Of a stretch of 64,000 nt of DNA, positions 13,475-55,719 are shown one piece after another. The stretch spans positions 70,122,001-70,186,000 of the forward strand of contig CM126215.1 in assembly GCA_052327205.1 (NCBI GenBank), read 5' to 3'. The position numbers and the translations under genes are program-made. The notes under the pieces were generated by a model. The model ran no database searches and was not told the origin of the DNA. It saw only the letters and a program-made list of their open reading frames with translations. This stretch comes from Somniosus microcephalus (taxonomy: Eukaryota). Numbering within the stretch: the first letter of the stretch is position 1; each line of letters starts with the position of its first letter.

Positions 13475-14118
13475 GTGAGTTTTACTTTAATCCATGTGAT
13501 TTATGTGAAGAGAGAATTAACCCAAGAACATGGATATTCGGGGGCGGGGGTCGTGGCTGAACTCGCTTCTTACTCTCTTATTACACCACTCCAGTTTAGG
13601 TGCTTTATCTGTACGGGGTCCCTTTAATAAAGTATTTTGTCCAGCTTATTAAGTTTGAGATTTTTCTATCGCGATGATTGTAACAATCTGCACCATAGGC
13701 ATTGGATCCGAGCTGCAGGGTTTCACCAGTGTGCGAGATCAGCAACACCACAGTCTTTGGGCTTTTTAAAGGAATCTGGACGGCGCAGGACAACAGCCAG
13801 GCGGTATCCAGTTACAAGTCTCTATCCTTGTTTCGTTAAAAGTGTCACAGCTTTCAAATTAAACCTTAAAATATAATTACATTGTAAGCGAAAATGTATT
13901 AAAGGGTCATAGTCTGTTTAAAAAGCGTACGAGAAATCTTATTTATTGGCCCAAAAAACACACAGCTTTGAATTGCTTGTAGAAATGCTATGGTGCACCT
14001 TGGGCCAGAAATTCCAGAACGGGGCTTGCAGCGCGTGCAAGCCCCGTATTTGCACTTACCCCGCGCTCCTGCCAATCAGCTCCAGGGACGCCTGCACTTC
14101 CAGAAACTGAAACAAGAA

Positions 14119-17095
14119 ATAACAACAGAAAATGCTGGAAAAACTCAGCAAGTCAGGCAACATCCGTGGAGAGAAATTTGAGTTGACGTTTCGGGTTTGA
14201 CCCTTCTTCAAAACTGGAGAGAAAAGGAACTAGATCGAAGGCAGGGCTGCGATCGGACAAAAGAATAAAAGAACCAAAAGAAGTAAAAGAGATTAGAAGC
14301 TAGACGAGATGGTAATAGGCTGTGATTAGGTGTAAAGTGTACTGGCAGGGCAAAAGATAGCTGCCAGGTGTGAGAGAGAAACAAAAGGAAAGGGGGGGGG
14401 GAAAGGAGTGGAAAAATATAAGTGAAACTGAAATGGGGGCCGAGCTTATGATCTGAAATTGTTGAACTCGATATTGAGACCGGAAGGCTGCAGACTGCCT
14501 AATCGGAAGATGAGGTGCTGTTCCTCGAGTTTACGTTGAGCTTCCGTGGAACAGTACAAGAGGCCAAGGACGGTGAGGTCCGAGTGGGAATGGAGCGGTG
14601 AATTGAAATGACAGGCGACCGGAAGCTCGGGGTCACCCTTACGGACTGAACGGAGGTGTTCCGCAAAGCGGTCACCCAATCTGCGTTTGGTCTCCCCAAT
14701 GTAGAGGAGACCGCATCGTGAGCAGCGAATACAGTATACTAGATTGCGAGAAGTACAAGTAAATCGCTGTTTCACCTGGAAGGGGTGTTTGGGGCCCTGG
14801 ACAGTGGGGAGGGGGGAGGTATAGGGGCAGGTGTTACATCTCCTCCGCTTGCACGGGAAGGTGCCAGGCGAAGGGGAAGGGCTGTTTGGGGTGATAGAGG
14901 AGTGGACTAGGGTGTCTCGGAGAGAGCGGTCCCTGCGGAATGCTGAAAGGGGAGGGGAGGGGAAGATACGTTTGGTGGTGGGATCACTTTGGAGGTAGCG
15001 GAAATGCCGGAGGATGATCCGTTGAATGTGGAGGCTGGTGGGGTGAAAGGTGAGGACAAGGGGAACCCTATCGTGGTTCCGGGAGGGAGGGGCAGGGGTG
15101 AGGGCAGAGGTGCGGGAGATAGAACTGACACGGTCGAGGGCAGTGTCAACCACGGTAGAGGGGAATCCTCGGTTGCGGAAAAAGGAGGACATGTCTGAAG
15201 CACTGGTGTGGAAGGTGGCATCGTCGGAGCAGATACGGCGGAGGCGGAGAAACTGGGAGAATGGAATAGAGTCCTTACAGGAAGCGGGGTGGGAGGAAGT
15301 GTAGTCCAGGTAGCTGTGGGAGTCAGTGGGCTTGTAGTAAATATTGGTCGCTAACCTATCCCCAGAGATGGAGACGGAGAAGTCGAGGAAGGGAAGGGAA
15401 GAGTCAGAGATGGACCATGTGAAGGTGAGGGAAGGGTGGAAATTGGAGGCAAAGTGAATGAAATTGTCAAGTTCGGGGCGAGAGCAGGAAACGGCACCGA
15501 TACAGTCATCAATGTATCGGAAAAAGAGGTGAGGGAGGGGACCCGAGTAGGACTGGAACAAAGATTGTTCCACATAGCCCACGAAAAGGCAGGCATAGCT
15601 AGGACCCATGCGGGTACCCATGGCAACACCTTTGATTTGGAGGAAATGAGTGGAGTTAAAGGAGAAGTTGTTCAATGTGAGAACCAGTTCAGCCAGGCGG
15701 AGGAGGGTCGTGGTGGATGGGGACTGGTCGGGCCTCTGTTCGAGGAAGAAGCGGAGTGCCCTCAGGCCATCCGGGTGGGGGATGGAGGTGTAGAGGGATT
15801 GTACGTCCATGGTGAAAAGGAGGCGGTTGGGGCCAGGAAACTGGAAACTGTTAAAGTGGCGGAGGGCGTCCGAAGAGTCGCGGATGTAGGTGGGAAGAGA
15901 CTGGACAAGGGGAGAAAAGATAGAGTTTCTCCGCCTCCGCCGTATCTGCTCCGACGATGCCACCTTCCACACCAGTGCTTCAGACATGTCCTCCTTTTTC
16001 CGCAACCGAGGATTCCCCTCTACCGTGGTTGACACTGCCCTCGACCGTGTCAGTTCTATCTCCCGCACCTCTGCCCTCACCCCTGCCCCTCCCTCCCGGA
16101 ACCACGATAGGGTTCCCCTTGTCCTCACCTTTCACCCCACCAGCCTCCACATTCAACGGATCATCCTCCGGCATTTCCGCTACCTCCAAAGTGATCCCAC
16201 CACCAAACGTATCTTCCCCTCCCCTCCCCTTTCAGCATTCCGCAGGGACCGCTCTCTCCGAGACACCCTAGTCCACTCCTCTATCACCCCAAACAGCCCT
16301 TCCCCTTCGCCTGGCACCTTCCCGTGCAAGCGGAGGAGATGTAACACCTGCCCCTATACCTCCCCCCTCCCCACTGTCCAGGGCCCCAAACACCCCTTCC
16401 AGGTGAAACAGCGATTTACTTGTACTTCTCGCAATCTAGTATACTGTATTCGCTGCTCACGATGCGGTCTCCTCTACATTGGGGAGACCAAACGCAGATT
16501 GGGTGACCGCTTTGCGGAACACCTCCGTTCAGTCCGTAAGGGTGACCCCGAGCTTCCGGTCGCCTGTCATTTCAATTCACCGCTCCATTCCCACTCGGAC
16601 CTCACCGTCCTTGGCCTCTTGTACTGTTCCACGGAAGCTCAACGTAAACTCGAGGAACAGCACCTCATCTTCCGATTAGGCAGTCTGCAGCCTTCCGGTC
16701 TCAATATCGAGTTCAACAATTTCAGATCATAAGCTCGGCCCCCATTTCAGTTTCACTTATATTTTTCCACTCCTTTTCCCCCCCCCCTTTCCTTTTGTTT
16801 CTCTCTCACACCTGGCAGCTATCTTTTGCCCTGCCAGTACACTTTACACCTAATCACAGCCTATTACCATCTCGTCTAGCTTCTAATCTCTTTTACTTCT
16901 TTTGGTTCTTTTATTCTTTTGTCCGATCGCAGCCCTGCCTTCGATCTAGTTCCTTTTCTCTCCAGTTTTGAAGAAGGGTCAAACCCGAAACGTCAACTCA
17001 AATTTCTCTCCACGGATGTTGCCTGACTTGCTGAGTTTTTCCAGCATTTTCTGTTGTTATTTCGGATTTCCAACATCTGCAGTATTTTGCTATCG
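14119..17095. mobile_element. Neptune-type Penelope-like element in inverted (head-to-head) configuration, 14-bp TSD
   Basis: Minus arm 14119-15926 (RT GVAMG/YIDD, CxxC linker, GIY-YIG YIGET); plus arm 15924-17095 is the reverse complement of 14119-15254 plus a ~35-nt tail; AGT microhomology at the junction; TSD AACTGAAACAAGAA (14105-14118 / 17096-17109). Confidence 0.93.
16964..16998 (+). ncRNA. Minimal type I hammerhead ribozyme (U3 variant) in the PLE 3' region
   Basis: AGTT-TTGAAGA-A-GGGT CAA ACCC-GAAA-CG-TC-AACT: stem I AGTT/AACT, stem II GGGT/ACCC, palindromic stem III, GUC site; reverse copies at 14181-14215 and 40500-40534. Confidence 0.75.
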
Positions 17096-39959: not shown

Positions 39960-42800
39960 TTAAGTAAATCTGGCCATTCCGGTCCACCTCCGGTTCGTCC
40001 TGATCCTCCTCCTCTGAAGAGGCTGTGTGTGCTGCGTCTTGCTCCTCCTGCAGCTCCAATCCTCACTGTTAGGCACTATGTTGTGCAGCGCGTAGCAAAT
40101 GACGATGATTCTGGAGACCCTGGCTGGTGCATACTGAAGGGCTCCTCCAGATCTGTCAAGGCATCTGAAATGCATCTTCAGCATGCCGATTGCTTGCTCT
40201 ATGATGCATCTGGTGGATATGTGGCTGCCATAATGCTCCTTGGCCTCAATACTTGGCCTACTCAAGGGTGTCATCAGCTACGTCTTCAGTGGATAGCCCG
40301 TCTCCAAGCAGCCAGCTGGTAAGTCTGTTTGGAGGTGCGAAGAGCTGAGGGAGGGGGGACTGGTGCAGCACAAAAGAGTCATGACAGCTGCCAGGGAATC
40401 TGGCACACACATGCAGGATGATCTTTTTATATATAAAATAACAACAGAAAATGCTGGAAAAACTCAGCAAGTCAGGCAACATCCGTGGAGAGAAATTTGA
40501 GTTGACGTTTCGGGTTTGACCCTTCTTCAAAACTGGAGAGAAAAGGAACTAGATCGAAGGCAGGGCTGCGATCGGACAAAAGAATAAAAGAACCAAAAGA
40601 AGTAAAAGAGATTAGAAGCTAGACGAGATGGTAATAGGCTGTGATTAGGTGTAAAGTGTACTGGCAGGGCAAAAGATAGCTGCCAGGTGTGAGAGAGAAA
40701 CAAAAGGAAAGGGGGGGGGGGGAAAGGAGTGGAAAAATATAAGTGAAAATGAAATGGGGGCCGAGCTTATGATCTGAAATTGTTGAACTCGATATTGAGA
40801 CCGGAAGGCTGCAGACTGCCTAATCGGAAGATGAGGTGCTGTTCCTCGAGTTTACGTTGAGCTTCCGTGGAACAGTACAAGAGGCCAAGGACGGTGAGGT
40901 CCGAGTGGGAATTGAAATGACAGGCGACCGGAAGCTCGGGGTCACCCTTACGGACTGAACGGAGGTGTTCCGCAAAGCGGTCACCCAATCTGCGTTTGGT
41001 CTCCCCAATGTAGAGGAGACCGCATCGTGAGCAGCGAATACAGTATACTAGATTGCGAGAAGTACAAGTAAATCGCTGTTTCACCTGGAAGGGGTGTTTG
41101 GGGCCCTGGACAGTGGGGAGGGGGGAGGTATAGGGGCAGGTGTTACATCTCCTCCGCTTGCACGGGAAGGTGGCAGGCGAAGGGGAAGGGCTGTTTGGGG
41201 TGATAGAGGAGTGGACTAGGGTGTCTCGGAGAGAGCGGTCCCTGCGGAATGCTGAAAGGGGAGGGGAGGGGAAGATACGTTTGGTGGTGGGATCACTTTG
41301 GAGGTAGCGGAAATGCCGGAGGATGATCCGTTGAATGTGGAGGCTGGTGGGGTGAAAGGTGAGGACAAGGGGAACCCTATCGTGGTTCCGGGAGGGAGGG
41401 GCAGGGGTGAGGGCAGAGGTGCGGGAGATAGAACTGACACGGTCGAGGGCAGTGTCAACCACGGTAGAGGGGAATCCTCGGTTGCGGAAAAAGGAGGACA
41501 TGTCTGAAGCACTGGTGTGGAAGGTGGCATCGTCGGAGCAGATACGGCGGAGGCGGAGAAACTGGGAGAATGGAATAGAGTCCTTACAGGAAGCGGGGTG
41601 GGAGAAAGTGTAGTCCAGGTAGCTGTGGGAGTCAGTGGGCTTGTAGTAAATATTGGTCGATAACCTATCCCCAGAGATGGAGACGGAGAAGTCGAGGAAG
41701 GGAAGGGAAGAGTCAGAGATGGACCATGTGAAGGTGAGGGAAGGGTGGAAATTGGAGGCAAAGTGAATCAAATTGTCAAGTTCGGGGCGAGAGCAGGAAA
41801 CGGCACCGATACAGTCATCAATGTATCGGAAAAAGAGGTGAGGGAGGGGACCCGAGTAGGACTGGAACAAAGATTGTTCCACATAGCCCACGAAAAGGCA
41901 GGCATAGCTAGGACCCATGCGGGTACCCATGGCAACACCTTTGATTTGGAGGAAATGAGTGGAGTTAAAGGAGAAGTTGTTCAATGTGAGAACAAGTTCA
42001 GCCAGGCGGAGGAGGGTCGTGGTGGATGGGGACTGGTCGGGCCTCTGTTCGAGGAAGAAGCGGAGTGCCCTCAGGCCATCGGGGTGGGGGATGGAGGTGT
42101 AGAGGGATTGTACGTCCATGGTGAAAAGGAAGCGGTTGGGGCCAGGAAACTGGAAACTGTTAAAGTGGCGGAGGGCGTCCGAAGAGTCGCGGATGTAGGT
42201 GGGAAGAGACTGGACAAGGGGAGAAAAGATAGAGTCAAGATAGGAAGAGATAAGTTCCGTAGGGCAAGAACAGGCTGAAACGATGGGTCTACCAGGGCAG
42301 TCCTGTTTGTGGATCTTGGGAAGGAGGTAGAAGCGGGCTGTGCGGGGTTGGGGAACTATGAGGTTGGTGGCAGCGGGGGGAAGATCTCCAGAGGAGATGA
42401 GGTCAGTGACAGTCTTGGAAACGGTGGTTTGATGTTCGGTAGTGGGGTCATGGTCCAGGTGGAGGTAGGAGCAGGTGTCGGAGAGTTGGCGTTCAGCTTC
42501 CGCTAGGTAGAGGTCAGTACGCCAAACAACAACAGCACCACCCTTGTCAGCGGGTTTAATGACAATGTCAGGGTTGGATCTAAGAGAATGGAGTGCTGCA
42601 AGTTCAGAGGGAGGTAGGTTGGAGTGAGTGAGGGGAGCAGAGAAATGGAGACGGCCGATGTCACGGCGGCAGTTAGCGATGAAAAGATCTAGAGAGGGTA
42701 AGAGGCCAGGGGGAGGGGTCCAGGTAGAATGGGAATTCTGCAAGCGGGAGAAAGGATCTTTTTATGGTTGCAGACGAACTGCACATTGAGGGGGTGGAAG
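39960..42800 (-). pseudogene. Harbinger DDE nuclease (HARBI1-like) C-terminal half, split by a Penelope element
   Basis: [62 protein letters not shown]. Confidence 0.85.
40431..42754 (-). mobile_element. Neptune-type Penelope-like element, 5'-truncated, open RT-GIY-YIG frame (40767-42743)
   Basis: IKPADKGG, LPKIHK..GRPI, GVAMG, YIDD, CKRRRCNTC, YIGET; near-identical to the 14-17 kb copy except a 12-nt in-frame deletion; TSD GATCTTTTTAT (40420-40430 / 42755-42765). Confidence 0.95.
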
Positions 42801-44021: not shown

Positions 44022-47000
44022 ATTTATCCACATTATACTGCATCTGCCATGCATCTGCCCAATCACCCAACCTGTCCAAATCATGCTGGAGTTTCTCTGC
44101 ATCCTCCTCACAGCACACACACCCACCCAGCTTTGTGTCGTCTGCAAACTTGGAGCTATTGGGCTGGATTTTCATTCAGGAGTCGGGTAGGAGGCGGGAC
44201 TACAACTTTCGGGGTTGTAGTCCCGCCTCCATCGAGATGCAGCCAATCCACGCGATTTTAACTTGATTCTCCTTGTTGAGCCCCCCCAGCGGGCTCAGCA
44301 GGCCAATTAAGGGCCACCCGGCAACAGGTGACGTCACAGACTGAAATTTCATCTGTCAAGAGGTTTTGACAGATGAAATATCAGTGTTGCACAGCTGTTT
44401 GAAGCTGTCAAACACTGACAGTCTTCTAACCTGAGTCCTTCTCCACAGACTCAGTTAGAAATCTCTCCTACACAGTGTTAGATCCGTGTGTTAATGGAGA
44501 CATGGAATGCAGGAGTTGATTTAACAAGTGTTTACTCAACAAAGTCTGGAGGTGAACTAACTACACAAGACGCTACACAGGCTTATATACCCGAGTGGTC
44601 ACTACTGGTACTACAGTATACAGGGGCTTCAAAAACATAGTTCCTCTTAAAGGTACATACACTACAATTCCTCCCCTTTTAGATAAATAGTACATAACAT
44701 TTTAAGTAATCATTAAATAACATTTTTACAAGAACAATAATATACACATTTGCTGAAGTTAATCAATTACAAATTCAGTCTCTCTGGAGGCTTCCTGACT
44801 CTGTCCGGATAACGCCTCGGTGGTGTAGTAGGTTCTTTTGGCAAGGTCGATTCGGCTTCAATGCCAGTGTCGGGTTCATCTGGTTCCAGTATCACCGGAT
44901 CGGAGGTACGCAAACAAGAAGTTATCTACCTTGTTGTAGATTTATGTCTTCATTACCCATGGCCTTTATGGCCGCCTTGAAGGTCTGGACAAACCTTTCA
45001 GCCAATCCATTGGTGGCGGGATGGTATGGGGCGGACGTGTAGTGCTTAACCCCATTGTTTTTTAAGAACTTCCTGAATTCTTCGGATACAAATTGCGGTC
45101 CATTATCAGAACAGATCTGTTCAGGCAGCCCATTCCTGGCGAATATGGTCCTTAATACTGTGATGGCTTTTTCCGTGGTGGTGGAGGACATCTTTATTAC
45201 CTCCGGCCACTTGGAGTGTGCATCAACCGCGATTAAGAACATTGAGTCCATAAATGGACCAGCAAAGTCGATATGTACCCTTTGCTATGGAGATGAGGGC
45301 CACTCCCATGGATGTAGAGGGGCTTGTCGTGGGGCGTTTTGGACCTTCTGGCATCCTAGACAGCTCTTGGTCATTTCTTCGATGTTTCCATCGATACCTG
45401 GCCACCACACAAACGCTCTGGCTAAGTTCTTCATTTTCACTCCACCCAGATGCCCCTCGTGAAGCTCCTTTAGCACTCTATCCTTGAGTTTGGGTGGAAT
45501 CACCACTCTGGATCCACACATCAAGGTTCCTCGGCACACTGACAGCTGTTCTCTTTGCGAGAATGCTAGCAACAGTGGTTCGCCATGTGCTGGCCATCCC
45601 TTCACCGTTAAATCGTAGACTCGTGAGAGAGTCGGGTCATTTTGCGTTTCCTTTTCAATGGTAGAATTTGTCACCGGTAGACATTCCACTATGGTCGAGT
45701 GGAATATCTCCAATGGGTCCACTGTAGGCGCCTCTTCCACCGTTGGCAACGGTAGGCGCGATAACCCGTCAGCATTCCCATGCTGTTTTGTTCCTTTGTA
45801 CTCTATGTCATATTGGTGTGCCCCTAGGAACAGGGACCACCTCTGTAGCCTTTGTGCTGTCATAATGGGAACGCCCTTTTTAGGGTTGAATATGGAGACG
45901 AGGGGTTGATGGTCAGTCAACAAGGTAAATTTTTGTCCGTGTAGGTAATGGTTGAATTTCTTCACCCCCCACACCAGGCTGAGTGCCTCCCTGTCGATCT
46001 GGGCATAGTTGCGCTCAGCTGAGTTCAATGAGCGTGACGCAAAAGCTATCGGCCGCTCTGAGCCATCTGGGAATCTATGCGATAATACCGCTCCCACGCA
46101 TTAAGGGGATGCATCGCACGCCAGTCTGATTGGCAGTGATGGGTTGTAATGAGCCAACACTTCCCTGGACGTGATCAAGCCTTTGCATTTATGGAAGGCA
46201 CGTTTACAGTCTTTGCTCCATTTCCAAACTACTCCCGTTTGTAGCAGTGCGTTAAGCGGGTGCAGAACCGTCGACAAGTTTGGTAAAAATTTATGATAGT
46301 AATTTACTAATCCCAGGAACTGTAGTGTATGTACCCGTCTACCTTTAAGAGAACTATTGTATGTAACCGTTCACCTTTAAGAGAACTATTTTAGGTGTGG
46401 CACTACTTTGTTTGGCTTCTGTATACTGTAATACCGACGGTGACCACACCAGTATATAAGTGTTGTGTCAGGATTTATTGGGCAGATTCGCCCTGACCTT
46501 CGAATAGTAAAGTCCTGTTTTAAGTTACTCTGGTAGTCTGTGTATTAATTAACTAAACAACCCACAGACTTTACAGTGGCGACGAGTCCGATCGTACCCT
46601 GCGGCAACAATACTTCCGAAGCAGTTAACGAGCGTCGAGAAGAGGCAACCGCCCTCGTCGCTCTGCTGGGAGAAAACTCGAGGCTGCAGAACTAGAAAGG
46701 AGGAAGAATTTAGAGACAAAGACTTCCATCAGCAACAGGGCACTGACTGTCCCTTCTGCCACGGTGAGGAGTGAGCCGATCAGCACGAGAAGCAAGGCGG
46801 CCACGGTGACTGTGAGTAAGGGAAAGTAAAAAGAATAACCGGAGGATAAGGGCGGTGCACTCGACCACGGTCGAGGGGGAAAGGAGCCGGACAGAAGTCG
46901 GGTCCAGAGGCGCTGAGACTGGGGCAGCGTGGAGCAAGGAAGCCGTGGTACAGACAGGCTGGGGGACGCAACGGCGTCGTGAGACAGCTAGACCGCGACC

Positions 47001-47134
47001 GGCGAAAAAGGCCGGGCAGCGACCGAAGCCACGAAGCGCTGCGACCGGGAGCGTAGGCGCGGGAAGATATAAAAACTCAGCCGCAGCCGGGGAGGGAAGC
47101 ACCGGACTGCGAGAGGGCTGGGAGGCGCGATTGG

Positions 47135-47347
47135 GAGCCGAGCGAGCGGGAGAGGCAGAGCCGACCAAGGGAGACTGAGCGAGAGCCAGTCCAGCGGCTG
47201 AAACTGTTCTCCGTCAACGGGGTGTACCCAGCGCCGGTAGAGCCGAGCGAGTGGGAGAGAGACAGAGCCCGAGCAAGGGAGACTGAGCGAGAGCCAGTCC
47301 AGCGGCTGAAACTGTTCTCCGTCAACGGGGTGTACCCAGCGCCGGTT
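47135..47347 (+). repeat. ~108-bp tandem duplication in the LTR-element leader
   Basis: CAAGGGAGACTGAGCGAGAGCC..GTACCCAGCGCCGGT at 47166 and 47274. Confidence 0.9.
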
Positions 47348-47628
47348 GCCCTGCCAAGAAAAGGGAAAGCACTGAAGCCGATGCGGAGGCTGTGAACCTG
47401 AAAGCCAGCGGCCGTCGCCCGTGGGGAAAGTGTACCCCTCCCGCCAGGGGAAGAAACGTGGGAAGCCGCCATTAGGCGGAGAAGAAGACAGAAGCAGGGA
47501 ACCGCCATTGAAGTGGGCGGGGAGAGAAGATAAGCGCGGGAAACCGCCATTTTTGCGGGAACCGCCATCTTGGAAAAAAAAAGAAAATTTAAAGAAATAA
47601 TCCGTGGTGTTATCAGGAAGAGAGGAAG

Positions 47629-50466
47629 ATGCCTAAGCATGGTAACATCAACGATTTTAATTCCGAGGTAGAAGACTGGGCCATGTATGTGGAACGCATT
47701 GAGATCTATGGTGAGGCCAATAAAATAGAAGAAGATGACAAAGCTATAACCTTGCTAAACTCGATGGGCGTGAAGACATACGGGCTCTTGAAGCATCTAC
47801 TATCACCAGCTAAACCGGCGGATCAGACTTTCGATGATATTGTGGCTGTTCTGAAGGATCACTTGAGCCCCACACCGTTGATGTTGGCGGAACGATTCAA
47901 ATTCTATGCGAGAACGCAACGGAAAGACGAAAGCAACACAGAATACTTGGTCGAACTGCGTAGACTAGCGAAATACTGCCAGTTTGGAGGGAATCTGACA
48001 GAGGCATTGCGAGACAAGTTCGTGTGCGGATTGGCAAAGGAAGGAACGCAAAAGCGACTACTCGAAGAGAACGACCTTACACTTGACAGGGCTGTCCTTA
48101 TTGCAGCATCGCACGAAGCCGCAGCGAAGGGAACTGCGGAAATGCAGCTAAAGACAGCGGCACTCAGTGTGGATCAAATTACCTCGACAATAACAAAACG
48201 TTATCGTTGTGGGAAGACAACACACGACCAGAACCAATGCTGGTTTAAGAACCAGGAATGTAGGAAATGTGGCAAACTGGGTCACATAGCTAAGGTATGC
48301 CGGTCAGGGAAGAAGACCAACAACCAAAGGACCAACAACCAAAGGAAGCCATCACAGGAAAAGTACAACAAGGTACACAAGGTGGCTGAGAAGAGTTCAG
48401 ACGAACAGAATTCGGACTCAGACCCAAACGGCCAGGAGCTGGGTAGTCTGAGAATTCACAATGTGAGTAAGGAAGCTGACCTACAAACTATCTGGGTCAT
48501 GCTAAAAATAGCTGGAGTCCAAGTGAAAATGGAGTTGGACACTGGATCAGCTCTATCAGTCATAAATCGAAGGGATTACCACCAGCTATTCTCACATATA
48601 CCCTTAAGAGATACCAAGTTCGTATTGCAGACATACACGGGGCATAAAGTATACCCCATGGGAAAGATAAGAGTCAAGGTGAGAGATAGGGGTAAAGAAC
48701 ACCCAAGAATGAACTTATACGTACTACCTGAGGGAGGACCACCACTTCTAGGACGGGAGTGGATCAAGAAAATAGACATGGAATGGCACTACCTAAAAGC
48801 CATAACGAGTGAGGACTCGGTGCAGACAATCAGCTCAGATTCTGAATCGGATGACGATAAGACCAACCCAAATGTGAAAGACAAGGCTAAAATGGACTTG
48901 CCGACTAAGGTTGGAAAAACGAAGGCATGCAGAAAGGCTTATGCTCCAGAGAAGAACAAAGTTTCAGAACAGATCTCCACCGAACAACGACAACATAGTT
49001 TGACAGAGAATTCTGAGTCTGTTCAGTTTAAGGACATATCCATGACGGAAGAACACCGAGCTCGGACTCAACTTTATTTCAAATTACGACAACAATTAGA
49101 ACAATTGAGTTACCATCTCGTACAAGAGATGAAAACAATGAAAAAGTTCTATGACACCGAATGGGAGAATCTGGAAAGACAACAGAAGCAGCTAGCTCAA
49201 GCAGAGAGCGACCACAGAGCCATCGTGACCAATCACCGATCACATCTCCCTTATGATGTTCAGGAGTTAGAATATTTGCAGAAAGAAGCAAATGAAGAGG
49301 AATCTTCAGGAAGCCAGGATTTTATTCCAGTTCTTCTCTACGACTCCTTACAAGCAGAGTTTGAGAAGTTGAAGGAACAGTATGAACAGGCCCAGGCTAC
49401 AATCCTGGAGGGGGTTAACTCGGCAACCTCCGAAAAGCTAGTTTCAGTGGAAGCTTATGAGCAACTAAAGGTTGAACATGAGCAAGAAGTCCAAAGGCTG
49501 CAGGAAATTCTTGATGCGCTCAAGGCCAAGACTGACTCATCGGTAGAAGTTCCATCCATAGATGAGAAATTAGAGGTGAAAGACATGGCAGAACATGAAA
49601 GTCAAGATGTCCAAGAGCTCATAAAAATATTGAAGGAAACCCAAGACAAATATGAGGCGGCAATGACCGAGGTTCAACAACTTGAAGAACAGATTCAACT
49701 GGGAATTCTTTCAGTGAAAGAAAAGGCAACTGTAAGAAACACAGAGACTGTAAGAATGGCCCCTAAACATGAGCTAGAGAGCATCAAGGCGCAACTTCTC
49801 CGAGCGCTTAAAGCCAAAGTACAAGAGGAAAAAAAGGTGAAAGCATTGGAGGGAAAGGTGGATGAAATGGAGAAGACTCTGATCCACAGGGTCCCCGTGG
49901 AAGAGTTAACGGTCAGCCAACTCCTTCATATGCTGAGAGACAAGACTCTGCAATGGGAACCATTTGAACACGAGCTTCAATCTTCAAAGGGAAGGGGTTC
50001 GGAGCTCTCAAAAGTTTGGGGAATAGTTGAGGTTGCAACACAGATTTTACGGGGCTGCCGAAAGTACGCTGAATCACGTCAATGTGAACTACAGAATGTT
50101 GAAACAGCTGCTCCAGTAGAAGGATTGAATAGCCCGATCAATCAATCCCCGATGGAAGGGGAAGTATTGGAATCACAAATGAGGTCATTAGTGAAGGATT
50201 GGCAGGAAACCCAGGAAGAGCGGGATGAATATGAACGCATGAAGAAGTCTCTTCAGGAAAGATGTCTAGGGAGGGAACAACAGTCGGCTAACGTCCAGTT
50301 GGGTAAAGAAGAAGTAGCAGGCCCTCTCGCTAGACTAGCTCAGGACGACACCGAATATTACCATGACCTGTTGAGTGACACGGAATATTACGATGACTTG
50401 GTCTGCCCAGCTAGTGATGAAAACTCCCAAAGTGCAGAAATCAGGATGAAGCACTTAAAAGTCTAA
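47629..50466 (+). CDS. 945-aa Gag-protease-coiled-coil fusion protein (STK10/SLK-like and ANKRD24/UACA-like segments)
   Basis: Uninterrupted ORF: Gag (ERFKF..LRDKFVCGL), knuckle CRKCGKLGHIAKVC, protease LDTGSA..LLGREW, then EEHRARTQL..KKFYDTEWENLERQQKQ and IPVLLYDSLQAEFEKLKEQY. Confidence 0.85.
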   Translation: MPKHGNINDFNSEVEDWAMYVERIEIYGEANKIEEDDKAITLLNSMGVKTYGLLKHLLSPAKPADQTFDDIVAVLKDHLSPTPLMLAERFKFYARTQRKDESNTEYLVELRRLAKYCQFGGNLTEALRDKFVCGLAKEGTQKRLLEENDLTLDRAVLIAASHEAAAKGTAEMQLKTAALSVDQITSTITKRYRCGKTTHDQNQCWFKNQECRKCGKLGHIAKVCRSGKKTNNQRTNNQRKPSQEKYNKVHKVAEKSSDEQNSDSDPNGQELGSLRIHNVSKEADLQTIWVMLKIAGVQVKMELDTGSALSVINRRDYHQLFSHIPLRDTKFVLQTYTGHKVYPMGKIRVKVRDRGKEHPRMNLYVLPEGGPPLLGREWIKKIDMEWHYLKAITSEDSVQTISSDSESDDDKTNPNVKDKAKMDLPTKVGKTKACRKAYAPEKNKVSEQISTEQRQHSLTENSESVQFKDISMTEEHRARTQLYFKLRQQLEQLSYHLVQEMKTMKKFYDTEWENLERQQKQLAQAESDHRAIVTNHRSHLPYDVQELEYLQKEANEEESSGSQDFIPVLLYDSLQAEFEKLKEQYEQAQATILEGVNSATSEKLVSVEAYEQLKVEHEQEVQRLQEILDALKAKTDSSVEVPSIDEKLEVKDMAEHESQDVQELIKILKETQDKYEAAMTEVQQLEEQIQLGILSVKEKATVRNTETVRMAPKHELESIKAQLLRALKAKVQEEKKVKALEGKVDEMEKTLIHRVPVEELTVSQLLHMLRDKTLQWEPFEHELQSSKGRGSELSKVWGIVEVATQILRGCRKYAESRQCELQNVETAAPVEGLNSPINQSPMEGEVLESQMRSLVKDWQETQEERDEYERMKKSLQERCLGREQQSANVQLGKEEVAGPLARLAQDDTEYYHDLLSDTEYYDDLVCPASDENSQSAEIRMKHLKV

Positions 50467-50803
50467 GGAACATAGGGAGATGGTGGCGCTACAGCTGGCA
50501 GCGGATAAGGGAGCCCCGAGAGTCTCCAAGAAGCAGAAAAGAAAAAGACGAAGCAGAAGACGATAACCATCTAAATCATTATCACTTCTATCAGATCATG
50601 CACGTGGGCCCTACGAAGGGGGCCAAATCAGTTGGAAAGTAGGAAAAATTACCAAGGCAGTCCAGCTGTTTGTAAAAGTCAGCACTGCTGGTTCAGCAGG
50701 ACGGAAGTTCAAGCTGTTAAGCCAAGGGAAAGACTATTGGATGAGTCACGCTAGAAATGTGAACCGGCTACACCACAGAGATGTTGTTCGGACCGAGTCA
50801 AGA

Positions 50804-50885
50804 CCAGAGACTGAATCTGTGAACTGTTCCCGCAGAGACTGAATCTGTGAACTGTTTCCCGCAGAGACTATATCTGTGAATTGTT
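50804..50885 (+). repeat. Three ~28-bp repeats (CAGAGACTGAATCTGTGAACTGTT) derived from the integrase stop region
   Basis: Matches the outer element's ..ERLNL* end (44768-44790, minus). Confidence 0.8.
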
Positions 50886-53800
50886 TTACATGAAGTTGAT
50901 TATATGTTATGTTTAATGGGGAATAAGTATGTTGTAAGCTAAAAAGGGAGGATTGTAGTGTATGTACCCGTCTACCTTTAAGAGAACTATTGTATGTAAC
51001 CGTTCACCTTTAAGAGAACTATTTTAGGTGTGGCACTACTTTGTTTGGCTTCTGTATACTGTAATACCGACGGTGACCACACCAGTATATAAGTGTTGTG
51101 TCAGGATTTATTGGGCAGATTCGCCCTGACCTTCGAATAGTAAAGTCCTGTTTTAAGTTACTCTGGTAGTCTGTGTATTAATTAACTAAACAACCCACAG
51201 ACTTTACAGGAACGACCTTAATTGTGAGACATTTTCAGGCGCTGGGGCCTTTACGACCGCTTCAATTTTTTCAGGTGACTTATGCAACCCTTCTTCGTTA
51301 ATGACATGGCCACAATATGATATTTGTTTCTGGAAAAATTTGCACTTGGGGCGATTTGCTCGTAGGCCCCGTTCTCTCAGCCTCGTGAGCACCTGCTCCA
51401 AGTTGGCAAGGTGCTCGTTGTCGTTTTCTCCTGTTACAAGGATGTCGTCTAGGTAGCACTGAGTCCCCGGAATCCCTTGCAGGACTTGCTCCATAGCTCT
51501 TTGCCAGATAGCCGGAGCTGATGCCACTCCGAAAACCAGTCGATTGTACTGGTACAGGCCTTTGTGTGTGTTTATCGTGAGATACTTTTTAAGAGGCCTC
51601 CTCAACCTCCATCTGTAGATATGCCTGTGCTAAGTCAATTTTGATGAAACGTTTCCCTCCGGATAGTGAGGCGAAAATATCTTTACTGTACCGTGTGAAG
51701 AACCAGGTTTACAGTCACCTTGAAGTCCCCACAGATGCGAACTTTTCTCTGTTCTTCAGATTTATCATTACTCAACGTTTTCTTCATGACCGGGACGATG
51801 GGTGTTGCCCGCTCGCTCCAATCTACCTTGGATAACACGCCTGCTTTTTCCAAATTCTCCAGCTCTGCCTCGACGGCTGGACGAATTGCGTATGGCACCG
51901 GCCTTGCCTTATAAAACTTGGGAATTGCCGCATCTTCCACTTTTATTGAGGCGGTGGCGCCTTTCAGGGTTCCTAGTTCCTGTTGAAACACTTCTTTGGC
52001 GTTAGCCAAGATTTCTTTTAATCGTCCAGGTATGACGTCATCATCGGTTTTTTTCTTACTGGTCACCGTCAGTGCCTGAATGGAGTGCCAGTCTAAACGT
52101 ATCTTCCTGATCCATTCACATCCCAACAACGGTGGACCACCATCTGGCAGAACGTATAAATACAACTTCTGTATTTCCTTGCCGTTGTATACAACAGGCA
52201 CCCTTATTTTCCCTCTGGGGTATACTTTCTGCCCCGTATATGTCTTCAAGACAATGGATGTGTCTTTCAAAGGTATATGCGGAAATAGCCGCTCGTAATC
52301 CCGTCGACTCATGACGGTCAGAGCTGATCCTGTATCTAGCTCCATTTTGACTGAGGACCCCGCTATCATGAGGGTAACCCAAATGGTCTGGTAATCTTCT
52401 TTGGCAATTACATTATGTAATTTGAGACAGCTTAGTCTCTTGTTTCCGGAGTCGCTATCGCTCTTCTGGTCTTCGGAGCTACTGTCCGTCATCATTTGTA
52501 CCTTTCTGTACTTTTCCTTATTGACCTTTTTACTGTCAGCAGATTTCTTTCCAGATCTGCATACACGTGCAATGTGTCCCATCTTTCCGCATTGCCTGCA
52601 TGCTTTGTCCTTGAACCAGCAGTCCTTCTGGTCATGGGTGGATCTGCCGCAGCGATAACATCTCTCTCAACCCCGTGTCATTTCATGGGTGCCGAAGTCC
52701 TGTGGCTTTTGCTGTATCTCTGCAGCTCCTCTTGCTGCTGCTTCGTATGATACAGCCACACTGAAAGCCTTGTCCAGTGTCAAATCTTTCTCAGAAAGTA
52801 GTCTTTTCTGTGTTCCTTCGCTTAGGAGACCGCAGACGAATTTGTCTCGTAGAGAATCTGCCAGTCCTGCCCCGAATTGGCAGTGCTTTGACAGCTTTCG
52901 TAATTCGGTGAGGTAATCAGCATTACTTTCATTCTTGTGCTGATTCCTCCTGAAGAATTTGAATCGTTCTGCTATCAGCAGCGGTGTTGGGTTTAAGTGC
53001 TCCTGTAAGGTATCAACAATCTCATTAAAATTCTTGTCCATTGGTTTGGCTGGAGTGATCAAGTTTTGTAACAGCCCGTATGTCCTTGTGCCCATCAGAT
53101 TTAGAAGTACCGATGCCTTTTTATCATCCGCTACTTCATTCGCCTTGCAATATACCTCCACTCTTTCCACATGTGGTCCAATCTTCTATATCACTATCGA
53201 AAGCAGTAATATTGCCAGTCTTCGGCATCTTGAAAATCTAAAATGGCGCTTACCGCGCTTTTCTTTCTTCCCCGCCGAGTTAAGATGGCGCCTCCCGCGC
53301 TTTCCCGTCGCTGCCGCTGCTGCCAACGCTGTTCTCCGCGGTTCCCGTTGCGACCTGCAGCTTTTCGCGGTATTTCTATTTTTTTTATATATCACTTCAA
53401 TATTCTCTCCGTAATTGAAGAACCGTTCCCGTCGTGGAGCGGACCCTCTGGGACTTTCCCATCCCTCTGCTCGGTCCGAACGCCGACCTGATTCGCAGCA
53501 CCGGCCGCGCCCTGAGTGCTCCACCCTCTCTCTTTGCTTCTGCTTCCCGACTCGCTGCCCGGCCCCGTTGCAGAGCCACCCGATCGAGCTCTAGCCCGCC
53601 GCAGCCCAGGAAGGATCAGTGCACTACCTGCCACCAGCCCGTTTAGCTGGGGAAACCACAGACTGGAGACCAAGCCTGGCTCTCATTTTCGAGTTTCTTC
53701 GAGTTATTTATTTATTTATTTTTTCTGGCTTCGACCTTCGTCTGAGGAATCGATCCCCTTGAGGTGCTGCCGAATTGCAGGTAAGTTCGTTTCTAACTCG

Positions 53801-55719
53801 TCGCCACTGTTAGATCCGTGTGTTAATGGAGACATGGAATGCAGGAGTTGATTTAACAAGTGTTTACTGAACAAAGTCTGGAGGTGAACTAACTACACAA
53901 GACGCTACACAGGCTTATATACCTGAGTGGTCACTACTGGTACTACAGTATACAGGGGCTTCAAAAACATAGTTCCTCTTAAAGGTACATACACTACACA
54001 CAGGAAGCTGAAGGCTGTCACTTTTGACAGTTCGCAGCCATTCTGCTTTCTGTGCCGGTGAGATGAGGGACTCCCGAGGCCTAAAGGAAGGAAGGCTGAA
54101 AAGGTCATTTAAACTTCTTTAGACACACCAAACACACTTACCTTTGCACTCATGCACACATAACTCACCTGAACACCGATATCTCGACCCCTCTTAAGTC
54201 CTTCAACCCGACGGCCCGCCTCGCAAACGTGCCGTGGTTTGGAGCCATCGGGAATCCCACACTTCAGCATTAAAAATAGGGATTAGGCTAAAAACTACCT
54301 GTTAACAGGCTGTTAATTGGCACTAATCCCTTCCCGCCTCGGGTAGTTGGGTCCCAGTGCAGGGCGGTTACCCGCCTCCTTTGAAACTGGTTGGGTGCGG
54401 GATGGGGTTGGGACCCCTGATTTCAGGATTTTAACCCCCCACACGCCTCCAATCCCGACTCCACGGCTCAATGAAAATCCTGCCCATTACATCTAGTTCC
54501 CTTGTCTAGATCATTAATATATATATATTGTGAATAGCTGGGATCCTAGCACCGATCCCTGCGGTACCCCACTAGTCACTGCCTGCCACTCGGAAAAAGA
54601 CCCGTTTATTCCAACTCTTTGCTTCCTGTCTGCCAACCAGTTCTCTATCCAAGTCAGTACCTTAACCCCAATCCCATGTGCTTTAACTTTGCACGCTAAT
54701 CTCTTATGCGGGACCTTATTGAAAGCCTTCTGAAAGTCCAAATACACCACATCCACTGGTTCTCCCTTATCTATCCTACCAGTTACATCCTCGAAGTCGG
54801 CGGGATGACGGCGAATTCCCGACACGCTGGGAAATTCGGCGATTTTTACTGCTGACCCACCCCCAAACCCGTACACTCTGGACTGGGAAAATTCCGTCCT
54901 CTGTGAGCGGCATACAGAGATTGGGACACCGAAACAAGAAGACGGAAATATTTGCAGAATGATGAGTGAGAAACATAGAAAAATAGGAGCAGGGGTAGGC
55001 CATTCAGCCTTTCGAGCCTGCTCTGCCATTCAATATGATCATGGCTGATCCTTTATCACAATACCATATTCCCGCTCTCTCCCCATACCCCTTGATGCCT
55101 TTTGCGTCTAGAAAATTACCAGGAGTGGAGCTCAGAACAAAAACTTCGAGAAATGAGAGCCTATATAGAGAAAAAAGAAAATTTAAGAATGGGAGATGAG
55201 GAAAGAAAGTGGGAGAGGCAGAAAGAATCAGAGAGTGGGAGACAAGTCCACTATTACAGAAAGAACATTCTTTTTCTTTGCAAGTGAGCAATGTCAGAGG
55301 AGATCAACTTCATTATGTAACCAGACATTTTGCTTTATGTAGCCAAATGCACCAATTGGTATAAATTCTCTGACTTATTGCCATGGCACATGTGCAAGTT
55401 GAAGATAATTTAAATCCCCAGAGAATGCCAATGAGAAAGTTCAAACAACCAAGCCAATTACCAGTACTATACACAGATTATAATTTATTATCCTTTATTC
55501 AAAATTATTAATTCAAATGATCTGTTAATTTGATTTGAAATTGTGCAAACAGAACCGGTCATTGAAAATTCATTGCCCTCTTAAGGTGAATCACTGGTTA
55601 ATTCAAATTCCCACCCCACATGGATCAGAACCAGTGAAACCTGCTGCTGAATCTGAGTTCAAGCAGGTCAGAGCAGTTAATCATCCTGGACTGTCGGACC
55701 TTGCCTTGCTGTAAAATGT

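Follow-up and report, generated by a model that had tools for sequence, protein, structure and literature searches.

A Ty3/Gypsy-type Gag-protease element of Somniosus microcephalus with spliced cargo from four host genes, two of them likely captured from circular RNA

From where does a retrotransposon without its own polymerase genes obtain a long in-frame cargo, and what keeps that cargo open? The question is raised by the window analyzed here, 64,000 nucleotides of Somniosus microcephalus (assembly GCA_052327205.1, contig CM126215.1, positions 70,122,001 to 70,186,000 of the forward strand), in which positions 46321..51208 hold a long terminal repeat (LTR) element of the Ty3/Gypsy type. Its open reading frame (ORF; 47629-50466, 945 codons) runs from Gag and protease into pieces of four host genes, namely, STK10, an ankycorbin-family gene, optineurin, and a zinc-finger gene, each of which was located in the genome. 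The explanation favored here, which is considered moderately probable, is that a semi-autonomous Ty3/Gypsy element acquired four spliced host cargoes by serial template switching, two of them likely from circular RNA (circRNA), and that the frame was likely kept open for RNA protection and packaging rather than for the function of the encoded domains.

Donors, templates, and relatives of the element

Protein searches with the cargo returned ankycorbin/ANKRD24-like proteins at up to 79% identity and optineurin, with the best relatives coming from sharks, and STK10 was matched at up to 93% identity when a sister copy was the query. The first-pass annotation, made from the sequence alone, had proposed at least two host captures at the RNA level, one STK10-like and one ANKRD24-like from about position 49315, and had asked whether the similarity might be generic to coiled coils and whether it crossed donor exon junctions. 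The STK10 capture is borne out by a specific protein match and a genomic donor, the ankycorbin/ANKRD24-like match is likewise specific, and the donor matches cross exon junctions exactly. The stretch that starts at 49900 and includes the residues EYERMKKSL is instead optineurin, which had been overlooked along with the zinc-finger donor, the back-splices, and the size of the family, which runs to thousands of copies with varied cargoes. The optineurin piece contains three exact splice junctions, one compensated frameshift pair, and a 7-nucleotide (nt) microhomology at its entry.

The evidence for circular templates is found in sister copies that hold a complete lap of STK10. All five of those fetched as whole loci (out of 98 matches to the STK10 middle region) encode, in one ORF, Gag-protease, five permuted STK10 exons, and then the integrase tail. 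Their STK10 cargo is 97.5 to 100% identical to the donor and represents a circle of 1,245 nt, with entry and exit points 14 nt apart. As in circRNA-derived retrocopies, the back-splice is exact relative to the genomic donor and no STK10 exon from outside the circle is present. The ankycorbin-family cargo contains a second exact back-splice (Table 1). The parent element and STK10 share a short motif at both switch points, in the same codon phase, and microhomologies of 6 to 8 nt mark three later junctions; intron-less host sequence with microsimilarity at switch points is also the signature of LTR-mediated retrocopies. Judged from these junctions, circular RNAs of STK10 and the ankycorbin-family gene very probably served as capture templates. 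The permuted exons could also have come from linear templates, either an intragenic trans-spliced RNA, which would carry an identical junction, or a repeat since lost from the donor locus, and the one motif shared by entry and exit could be microhomology alone. Such an origin is very unlikely given that each captured exon is present once in the 100-kb STK10 donor region, without tandem duplication, that the full-lap copies contain nothing of STK10 beyond the circle, and that back-splices are exact in two independent genes. Circles also usually outnumber trans-spliced RNAs.

The match to the fourth donor is demonstrated for 50442-50492 and 50519-50559 only. Two exons match and the terminal C2H2 exon is present; the upstream exons were not found in 240 kb, and an assembly gap (C1:4,793,861) lies 1 kb upstream. 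The gene is putatively DNAJC21-like; in DNAJC21, a J domain precedes two C2H2 fingers. Profile searches with the finger returned the zf-met/jaz class alone, and the search with its tail returned no named homologue. A zuotin-domain search led to another gene, on C17, which is taken to be DNAJC2. A search of the PDB with the cargo gave coiled-coil matches at chance level only, and the captured pieces are without kinase, ankyrin, NEMO, and CC2-LZ domains. Two further observations concern the donors. An intron-less 3' fragment of STK10 at C3:354.66 Mb, outside the element family, probably represents a processed retrocopy of separate origin, and an intron of the ankycorbin-family donor holds a 96%-identical element copy (C13:62,867,318-62,869,578) within the circle-forming interval.

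The first-pass description of a helper-dependent Gypsy element is supported. The element lacks reverse transcriptase (RT) and integrase, and an autonomous relative is present in the genome. This parent family (at least 150 matches at 98 to 100% RT identity, many in open frames of about 1,330 codons) has a single ORF of 1,330 amino acids (aa) in the order protease, RT, RNase H, integrase, and its best solved relative is Ty3. Most LTR pairs detected in the 12 parent copies fetched are 98 to 100% identical. The sequence pattern of the 5' switch occurs at 22 sites, and 5 of the first 10 run on into RT. The window element is tied to the parent by Gag-protease, LTR, and integrase tail; it may also resemble the Mag clade. 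Purifying selection on Gag-protease, the absence of RT and integrase, high copy number, and the presence of an autonomous relative are the attributes of semi-autonomous Gag-protease elements, and the element would have been mobilized in trans by such a relative. At a comparable LTR age, parent and full-lap copies show little divergence from each other, unlike the long-branched subfamily of the window copy, which points to a difference in rate.

A DNA search of the 6.4-Gb genome gave 2,916 candidates, and the 40 that were scored, the window copy included, had 99 to 100% identity; a search for the PKK domain gave 16,569, and many of the 150 scored lie in long frames. The copy count called for by the first pass reveals a large, dispersed family, with at least 1,849 exact genomic matches to a 25-mer spanning the ankycorbin back-splice. 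The STK10 back-splice has 894 exact matches, a junction of STK10 with optineurin that lacks ankycorbin has 3,685, and the ancestral finger motif has 160, each with a control count of 0; all are lower bounds for different subfamilies that may partly overlap. Intermediates with the order STK10-optineurin-finger-STK10 were found at 19 of 20 loci, the remaining one being the donor exon; they are mostly 92 to 98% identical to the donors, and most end in frame with the integrase tail. In the ankycorbin-less family, 26 of the 30 copies examined among the 3,685 are open. The same cassette is carried there on another Gag-protease/LTR backbone, only 71% identical in Gag-protease, and one copy clusters with a different autonomous family in the tree, implying cassette exchange between Gypsy families. 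(An example of the second backbone lies at C13:62,889,395-62,893,121.) Five further fetched copies contain titin-like Ig domains within the STK10 lap. Across such sister subfamilies two to four Ig domains lie in frame, and some have an additional stretch of about 150 aa with a CxxC motif ahead of the lap, to which no source was assigned. Cargoes have been deleted or swapped among successful subfamilies, and the distal cargo is out of frame in two of these. Arg/Lys-rich C termini are of varied source, being formed by the integrase tail in some subfamilies and by donor exon plus out-of-frame STK10 in others.

Divergence from the donors is 16% for STK10, 15% for optineurin, and 3% for ankycorbin, and the low last value fits ankycorbin as the final capture. 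In the proposed order, STK10 would have been captured first, then optineurin and the zinc-finger gene, and then the ankycorbin-family gene. In the proposed mechanism, a short motif close to the end of integrase is where reverse transcriptase would switch from the parent RNA to the five-exon STK10 circle; having copied one full lap, it would rejoin the parent at a similar motif directly downstream of protease, leaving the structure seen in the full-lap copies. Descendants would then have lost part of the STK10 lap and gained optineurin and the zinc-finger gene, as in the intermediates, followed by a partial lap of the ankycorbin-family circle. RT and integrase were likely borrowed from an autonomous relative, and switching likely took place inside particles.

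The family is represented in RNA. In two runs (labelled organism B), 12,148 records out of 16.7 million and 8,739 out of 14.4 million fall on the ORF region and cover 30 of 30 bins in both, as reads that assign to the family and not to the window copy. Nearly all strand signal in one run has a single orientation, which fits sense RNA if the usual library convention applies; the second run is mixed. The ankycorbin-less form is also represented among the reads. Many reads exit the element at 49280-49281 and upstream of 49900, suggesting further cargo variants that are absent from the loci examined. As for other species, none of the 150 best among 23,392 representative proteins matched both Gag-protease and STK10, which is weak evidence; 5 of the 150 were of the STK10 type only and 3 had unexplained tails. 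Of the sampled words, 58 to 75% occur in DNA runs labelled as three organisms.

Selection on the open frame

Selection in the replicating lineages keeps the frame open. The null was a simulation with the observed substitution spectrum, which ignores CpG context; the donors have also evolved and the lineages share history. Against this null the cargo has 0 stops where 5.6 are expected (P=0.002), and three lineages pooled have 0 where 10.7 are expected. Indels in frame and compensated frameshifts occur within the translated cargo. At the level of residues the picture is different: omega is about 0.29 in Gag-protease and 0.64 in the cargo (450 codons, 127 substitutions; silent excess, P=0.056), 0.69 for the pooled lineages, and 0.40 to 1.28 in other copies and lineages, and amino acid changes in the cargo are no more conservative than neutral ones (BLOSUM P 0.5-0.9). 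In the optineurin part omega is about 0.5 (P=0.04), and some of it is read out of frame. The first-pass claim that the fusion is under selection therefore holds for the frame, and hardly for the coiled-coil residues.

Between stop codon and 3' LTR there are 83 to 149 nt in copies of the parent, full-lap, titin-like, and intermediate kinds; the single copy measured in the window subfamily has 387 nt there. In the favored explanation, lineages would have been selected for an open frame that ends near the 3' LTR, like that of the single-ORF parent, and the benefit may be escape from the decay of RNAs with long 3' untranslated regions (3'UTRs), for which retroviruses provide a precedent. On the branch of the window copy there may have been added selection for the zinc finger and basic tail, perhaps through RNA binding: all 65 copies recovered (from 69 loci, three subfamilies) keep the four zinc ligands unchanged, and 7 of 23 finger columns are invariant, the ligands among them (P about 0.004), while 16 of the 19 other columns vary. 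Copies once inserted would decay roughly neutrally.

Several points weigh against this explanation. In Gag-protease, the nearest of the autonomous families sampled reaches no more than 83% identity, and the subfamily of the window copy sits on an unexplained branch about 17% long. With cargo omega below 1 (0.56 to 0.70; pooled silent excess, P=0.006), there may be a degree of constraint on the protein, with the proviso that stop avoidance and donor evolution bias this omega downward. The reading frame of the first fusion is owed in part to the switch motif, whose codon phase is shared by parent and donor. The control, cargo that is out of frame, is also stop-free (0 against 1.6 expected) and hence weak, apart from its single-base indels. 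The ligand test was picked after the sequences had been viewed, in subfamilies that share ancestry, and the finger is not required, as full-lap and many titin-like sisters are without it. Element RNA and host circRNA are indistinguishable in the RNA runs, in which no host circle was directly seen. Separately, donor-frame silent changes in the out-of-frame cargo (50546-50745 and equivalents) number 6 against 11.3 expected pooled, in a small sample with shared ancestry.

It is possible instead that selection favored the cargo for its bulk, as an acidic and soluble protein spacer of Pol size and any sequence that would let the Gag-protease polyprotein coassemble with the 1,330-aa polyprotein of the parent. 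Frames of 738 to 1,028 codons are open in all sampled subfamilies, the cargo is 20% Asp/Glu, omega is slightly below 1, and donors are interchangeable, but length varies widely and the distal cargo is out of frame in two successful subfamilies. Selection for bulk is considered unlikely, although it predicts nearly the same sequence pattern as RNA protection and packaging, so that the two are not separable here. Quite unlikely is action of the coiled coils through host partners, as the tether, dominant-negative decoy, or aid to hijacking suggested by the first pass, or with optineurin interfering with autophagy of particles. The coiled-coil pieces are mostly in their native frame, the subfamilies with optineurin have the highest counts (3,685 and 1,849 versus 894), and the omega of the optineurin part points the same way. 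Set against this are the near-neutral, nonconservative drift of residues, fragments that lack the domains listed above, out-of-frame reading of part of optineurin, and the deletion or substitution of cargo, by titin-like Ig domains among others, so that such a role is weakly supported. That the cargo is neutral luggage, its frames open by the luck of codon-phased microhomology with only Gag-protease selected, agrees with the phase-matched motif at the first capture, the near-neutral amino acid drift, and the breakage of about half of the inserted copies and is largely refuted by the missing stops, by compensated frameshifts and in-frame indels where the untranslated arc has single-base ones, and by the invariant zinc ligands.

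Beyond the favored explanation of this one element, a wider reading is tentative and somewhat doubtful: that a vertebrate Gypsy lineage repeatedly copackages host circRNAs, writes them in frame into the Gag polyprotein, shuffles their exons, recruited a host RNA-binding finger for replication, and swaps the cassette between autonomous backbones.

Architecture, age, and surroundings of the window copy

The features of the window copy are listed in Table 1. Those that typify the Gypsy lineage, identical 255-bp LTRs, a 5-bp target duplication, primer-binding site, and polypurine tract, were all verified as first read. No tRNA gene was found in 275 loci examined. In a domain search the ORF matched a zinc knuckle and an aspartyl protease and, weakly, PKK, with no match to RT, RNase H, or integrase. 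This agrees with the first-pass reading, as does the integrase remnant that it had placed at about 50765-50822. An ORF-like frame at 50567-50842 (sole Pfam match, E 0.08) was rejected as coding because its DNA is STK10 plus that remnant.

Table 1. Features of the element in the window and of its insertion site
Feature	Position	Strand	Remarks
Outer Gypsy element, older, decayed, full-length	44473..53998	-	window element inserted in its RT region
Target-site duplication GGAAC	46316..46320 (5'), 51209-51213 (3')	+	
5' LTR, 255 bp	46321..46575	+	85-87% identity to LTRs of autonomous parent family
Primer-binding site (predicted)	46577..46586	+	motif common to parent copies
Gag (zinc knuckle) and aspartyl protease, aa 1-393	47629..48806	+	83% DNA identity to parent
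STK10, three exons, internal deletion, in frame	48807..49193	+	near arc of captured circle; 79-90% to donor at C8:167.19 Mb
Ankycorbin family, end of one exon and whole 66-nt exon	49188..49263	+	6-nt microhomology with STK10 at entry
Ankycorbin-family back-splice junction, exact	49263..49264	+	donor site C13:62,873,413 (downstream exon) to acceptor C13:62,861,849 (upstream exon)
Ankycorbin family, large coiled-coil exon, first 643 nt	49264..49906	+	96.5% to donor
Optineurin, parts of four exons	49900..50317	+	82-92% to donor at C17:85.88 Mb
C2H2 (jaz-type) zinc finger and basic tail, fourth donor	50320..50559	+	donor gene at C1:4.79 Mb
STK10 far arc, outside ORF in window copy	50546..50745	+	77-85% to donor; single-base indels
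Integrase C-terminal tail remnant, untranslated in window copy	50746..50822	+	matches end of autonomous parent ORF
Polypurine tract	about 50941..50953	+	as in parent
3' LTR	50954..51208	+	identical to 5' LTR

Age and integrity were assessed on the 20 closest full-length copies, a biased sample chosen by cargo identity. Their target duplications are perfect in 17 and have one mismatch in 3. The element had been called very young, which holds for its identical LTRs in sequence terms only: zero LTR mismatches are also found in 4 of the 20, pooled LTR-LTR divergence is 0.75% (38/5081), and the terminal branch of the window copy is an ordinary 0.7%. At the rate of 7e-10 per generation measured in another shark (PMC10587355), 0.75% corresponds to millions of generations, probably an overestimate for methylated repeats, and is not recent. 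Likewise, the ORF described as intact is open over 945 codons and is shortened relative to the family by a private frameshift near 50457-50460, at which 29 of 29 other loci differ. Private changes (near 50413 and at this frameshift) break the zinc finger and cut the basic tail of the window copy, whereas 11 of the 20 copies run to 972 to 978 codons, open to a basic C terminus; 8 are broken, and 1 is without a start match. The cargo is stop-free along lineages, contrary to the frameshifted, neutral cargo that the first pass had set as a contrary outcome, even though these 8 of 20 inserted copies are broken and residue drift is near neutral. Private changes divide into missense, silent, and stop as 67:33:1 in Gag-protease and 36:22:3 in the cargo, indicating roughly neutral decay after insertion. 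Dispersed copies, the broken fraction, and private changes that include stops are unlike a domesticated Gag-derived host gene.

The outer Gypsy element has its own 5-bp target duplication, LTRs that are 98% identical, and in-frame stops; it was rejected as the parent, with a protease identity of only about 70%. Elsewhere in the window, 14109-17070 and 40436-42761 are near-identical RT elements with a GIY-YIG-like end, presumably Penelope-like, one of which has an inverted duplication and the other a 664-codon open frame.

Known systems and significance

Acutely transforming gag-onc retroviruses are helper dependent and fuse Gag to host sequence, and the parallel drawn with them by the first pass holds to that extent. 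The shark element differs in being a germline retrotransposon without envelope, with a parent closest to Ty3 and a fragmentary, drifting cargo that has no catalytic domains, kinase and ankyrin domains being absent. LTR-mediated retroposition in metazoans, in which internal ORFs are swapped for spliced host RNA (PMC5131818), shares with the shark family microsimilarity at switch points, multigene chimeras, and secondary mobilization. Those cases are few-copy retrocopies, and the string "circ" is absent from the main text of that paper, whereas the shark family has thousands of copies and adds in-frame Gag-protease fusion, back-splice junctions, and lineage-level selection. The maize LTR element Bs1 carries partial exons of three host genes in a hybrid protein; it is a plant element with one to five copies, and no circRNA origin is described for it in the available text (PMC5131818). 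The wheat elements RLG_Sabrina_SA and RLG_WHAM are semi-autonomous Gypsy elements with Gag and protease, no RT or integrase, high copy number, and a coevolving autonomous partner; they resemble the shark family in this design, and no host-exon cargo is mentioned in the available text (PMC9744471). CircRNA-derived pseudogenes, such as those of mouse circRFWD2 (33 at high confidence; Dong et al. 2016, PMC4897178), likewise have noncolinear exon junctions in genomic copies, their flanks are enriched for LTR sequence, and their mechanism was called mysterious. In comparison, the shark family still shows its autonomous parent, the two switch points, and one complete lap; the captured circle consists of coding sequence that is read in frame, and another circle followed at a later stage.

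A literature search (limited to titles, with few subscription papers and no repeat databases) found no paper describing the shark family or a Gypsy element that captured circRNA in frame. The parts have precedents (PMC5131818, PMC4897178, PMC9744471); the combination was not met in the literature searched, the supplements of which could list similar cases. The family represents a variation on LTR-mediated gene capture, in which circRNA retroposition is likely recorded directly. It bears on the route from circRNA to genomic copy, which was left open by PMC4897178: with the parent and both switch points preserved, together with one circle as a full lap and another as a partial lap, template switching in LTR particles becomes a concrete, testable route. 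In practical terms, copies of the element will raise the apparent number of STK10, optineurin, and ankycorbin genes, and in RNA data from sharks they will pass for back-splice reads. For the biology of the family, the finding means exon shuffling inside a replicating element, over thousands of copies, where selection acts on whether the frame stays open and perhaps also on a single zinc finger among the captured pieces.

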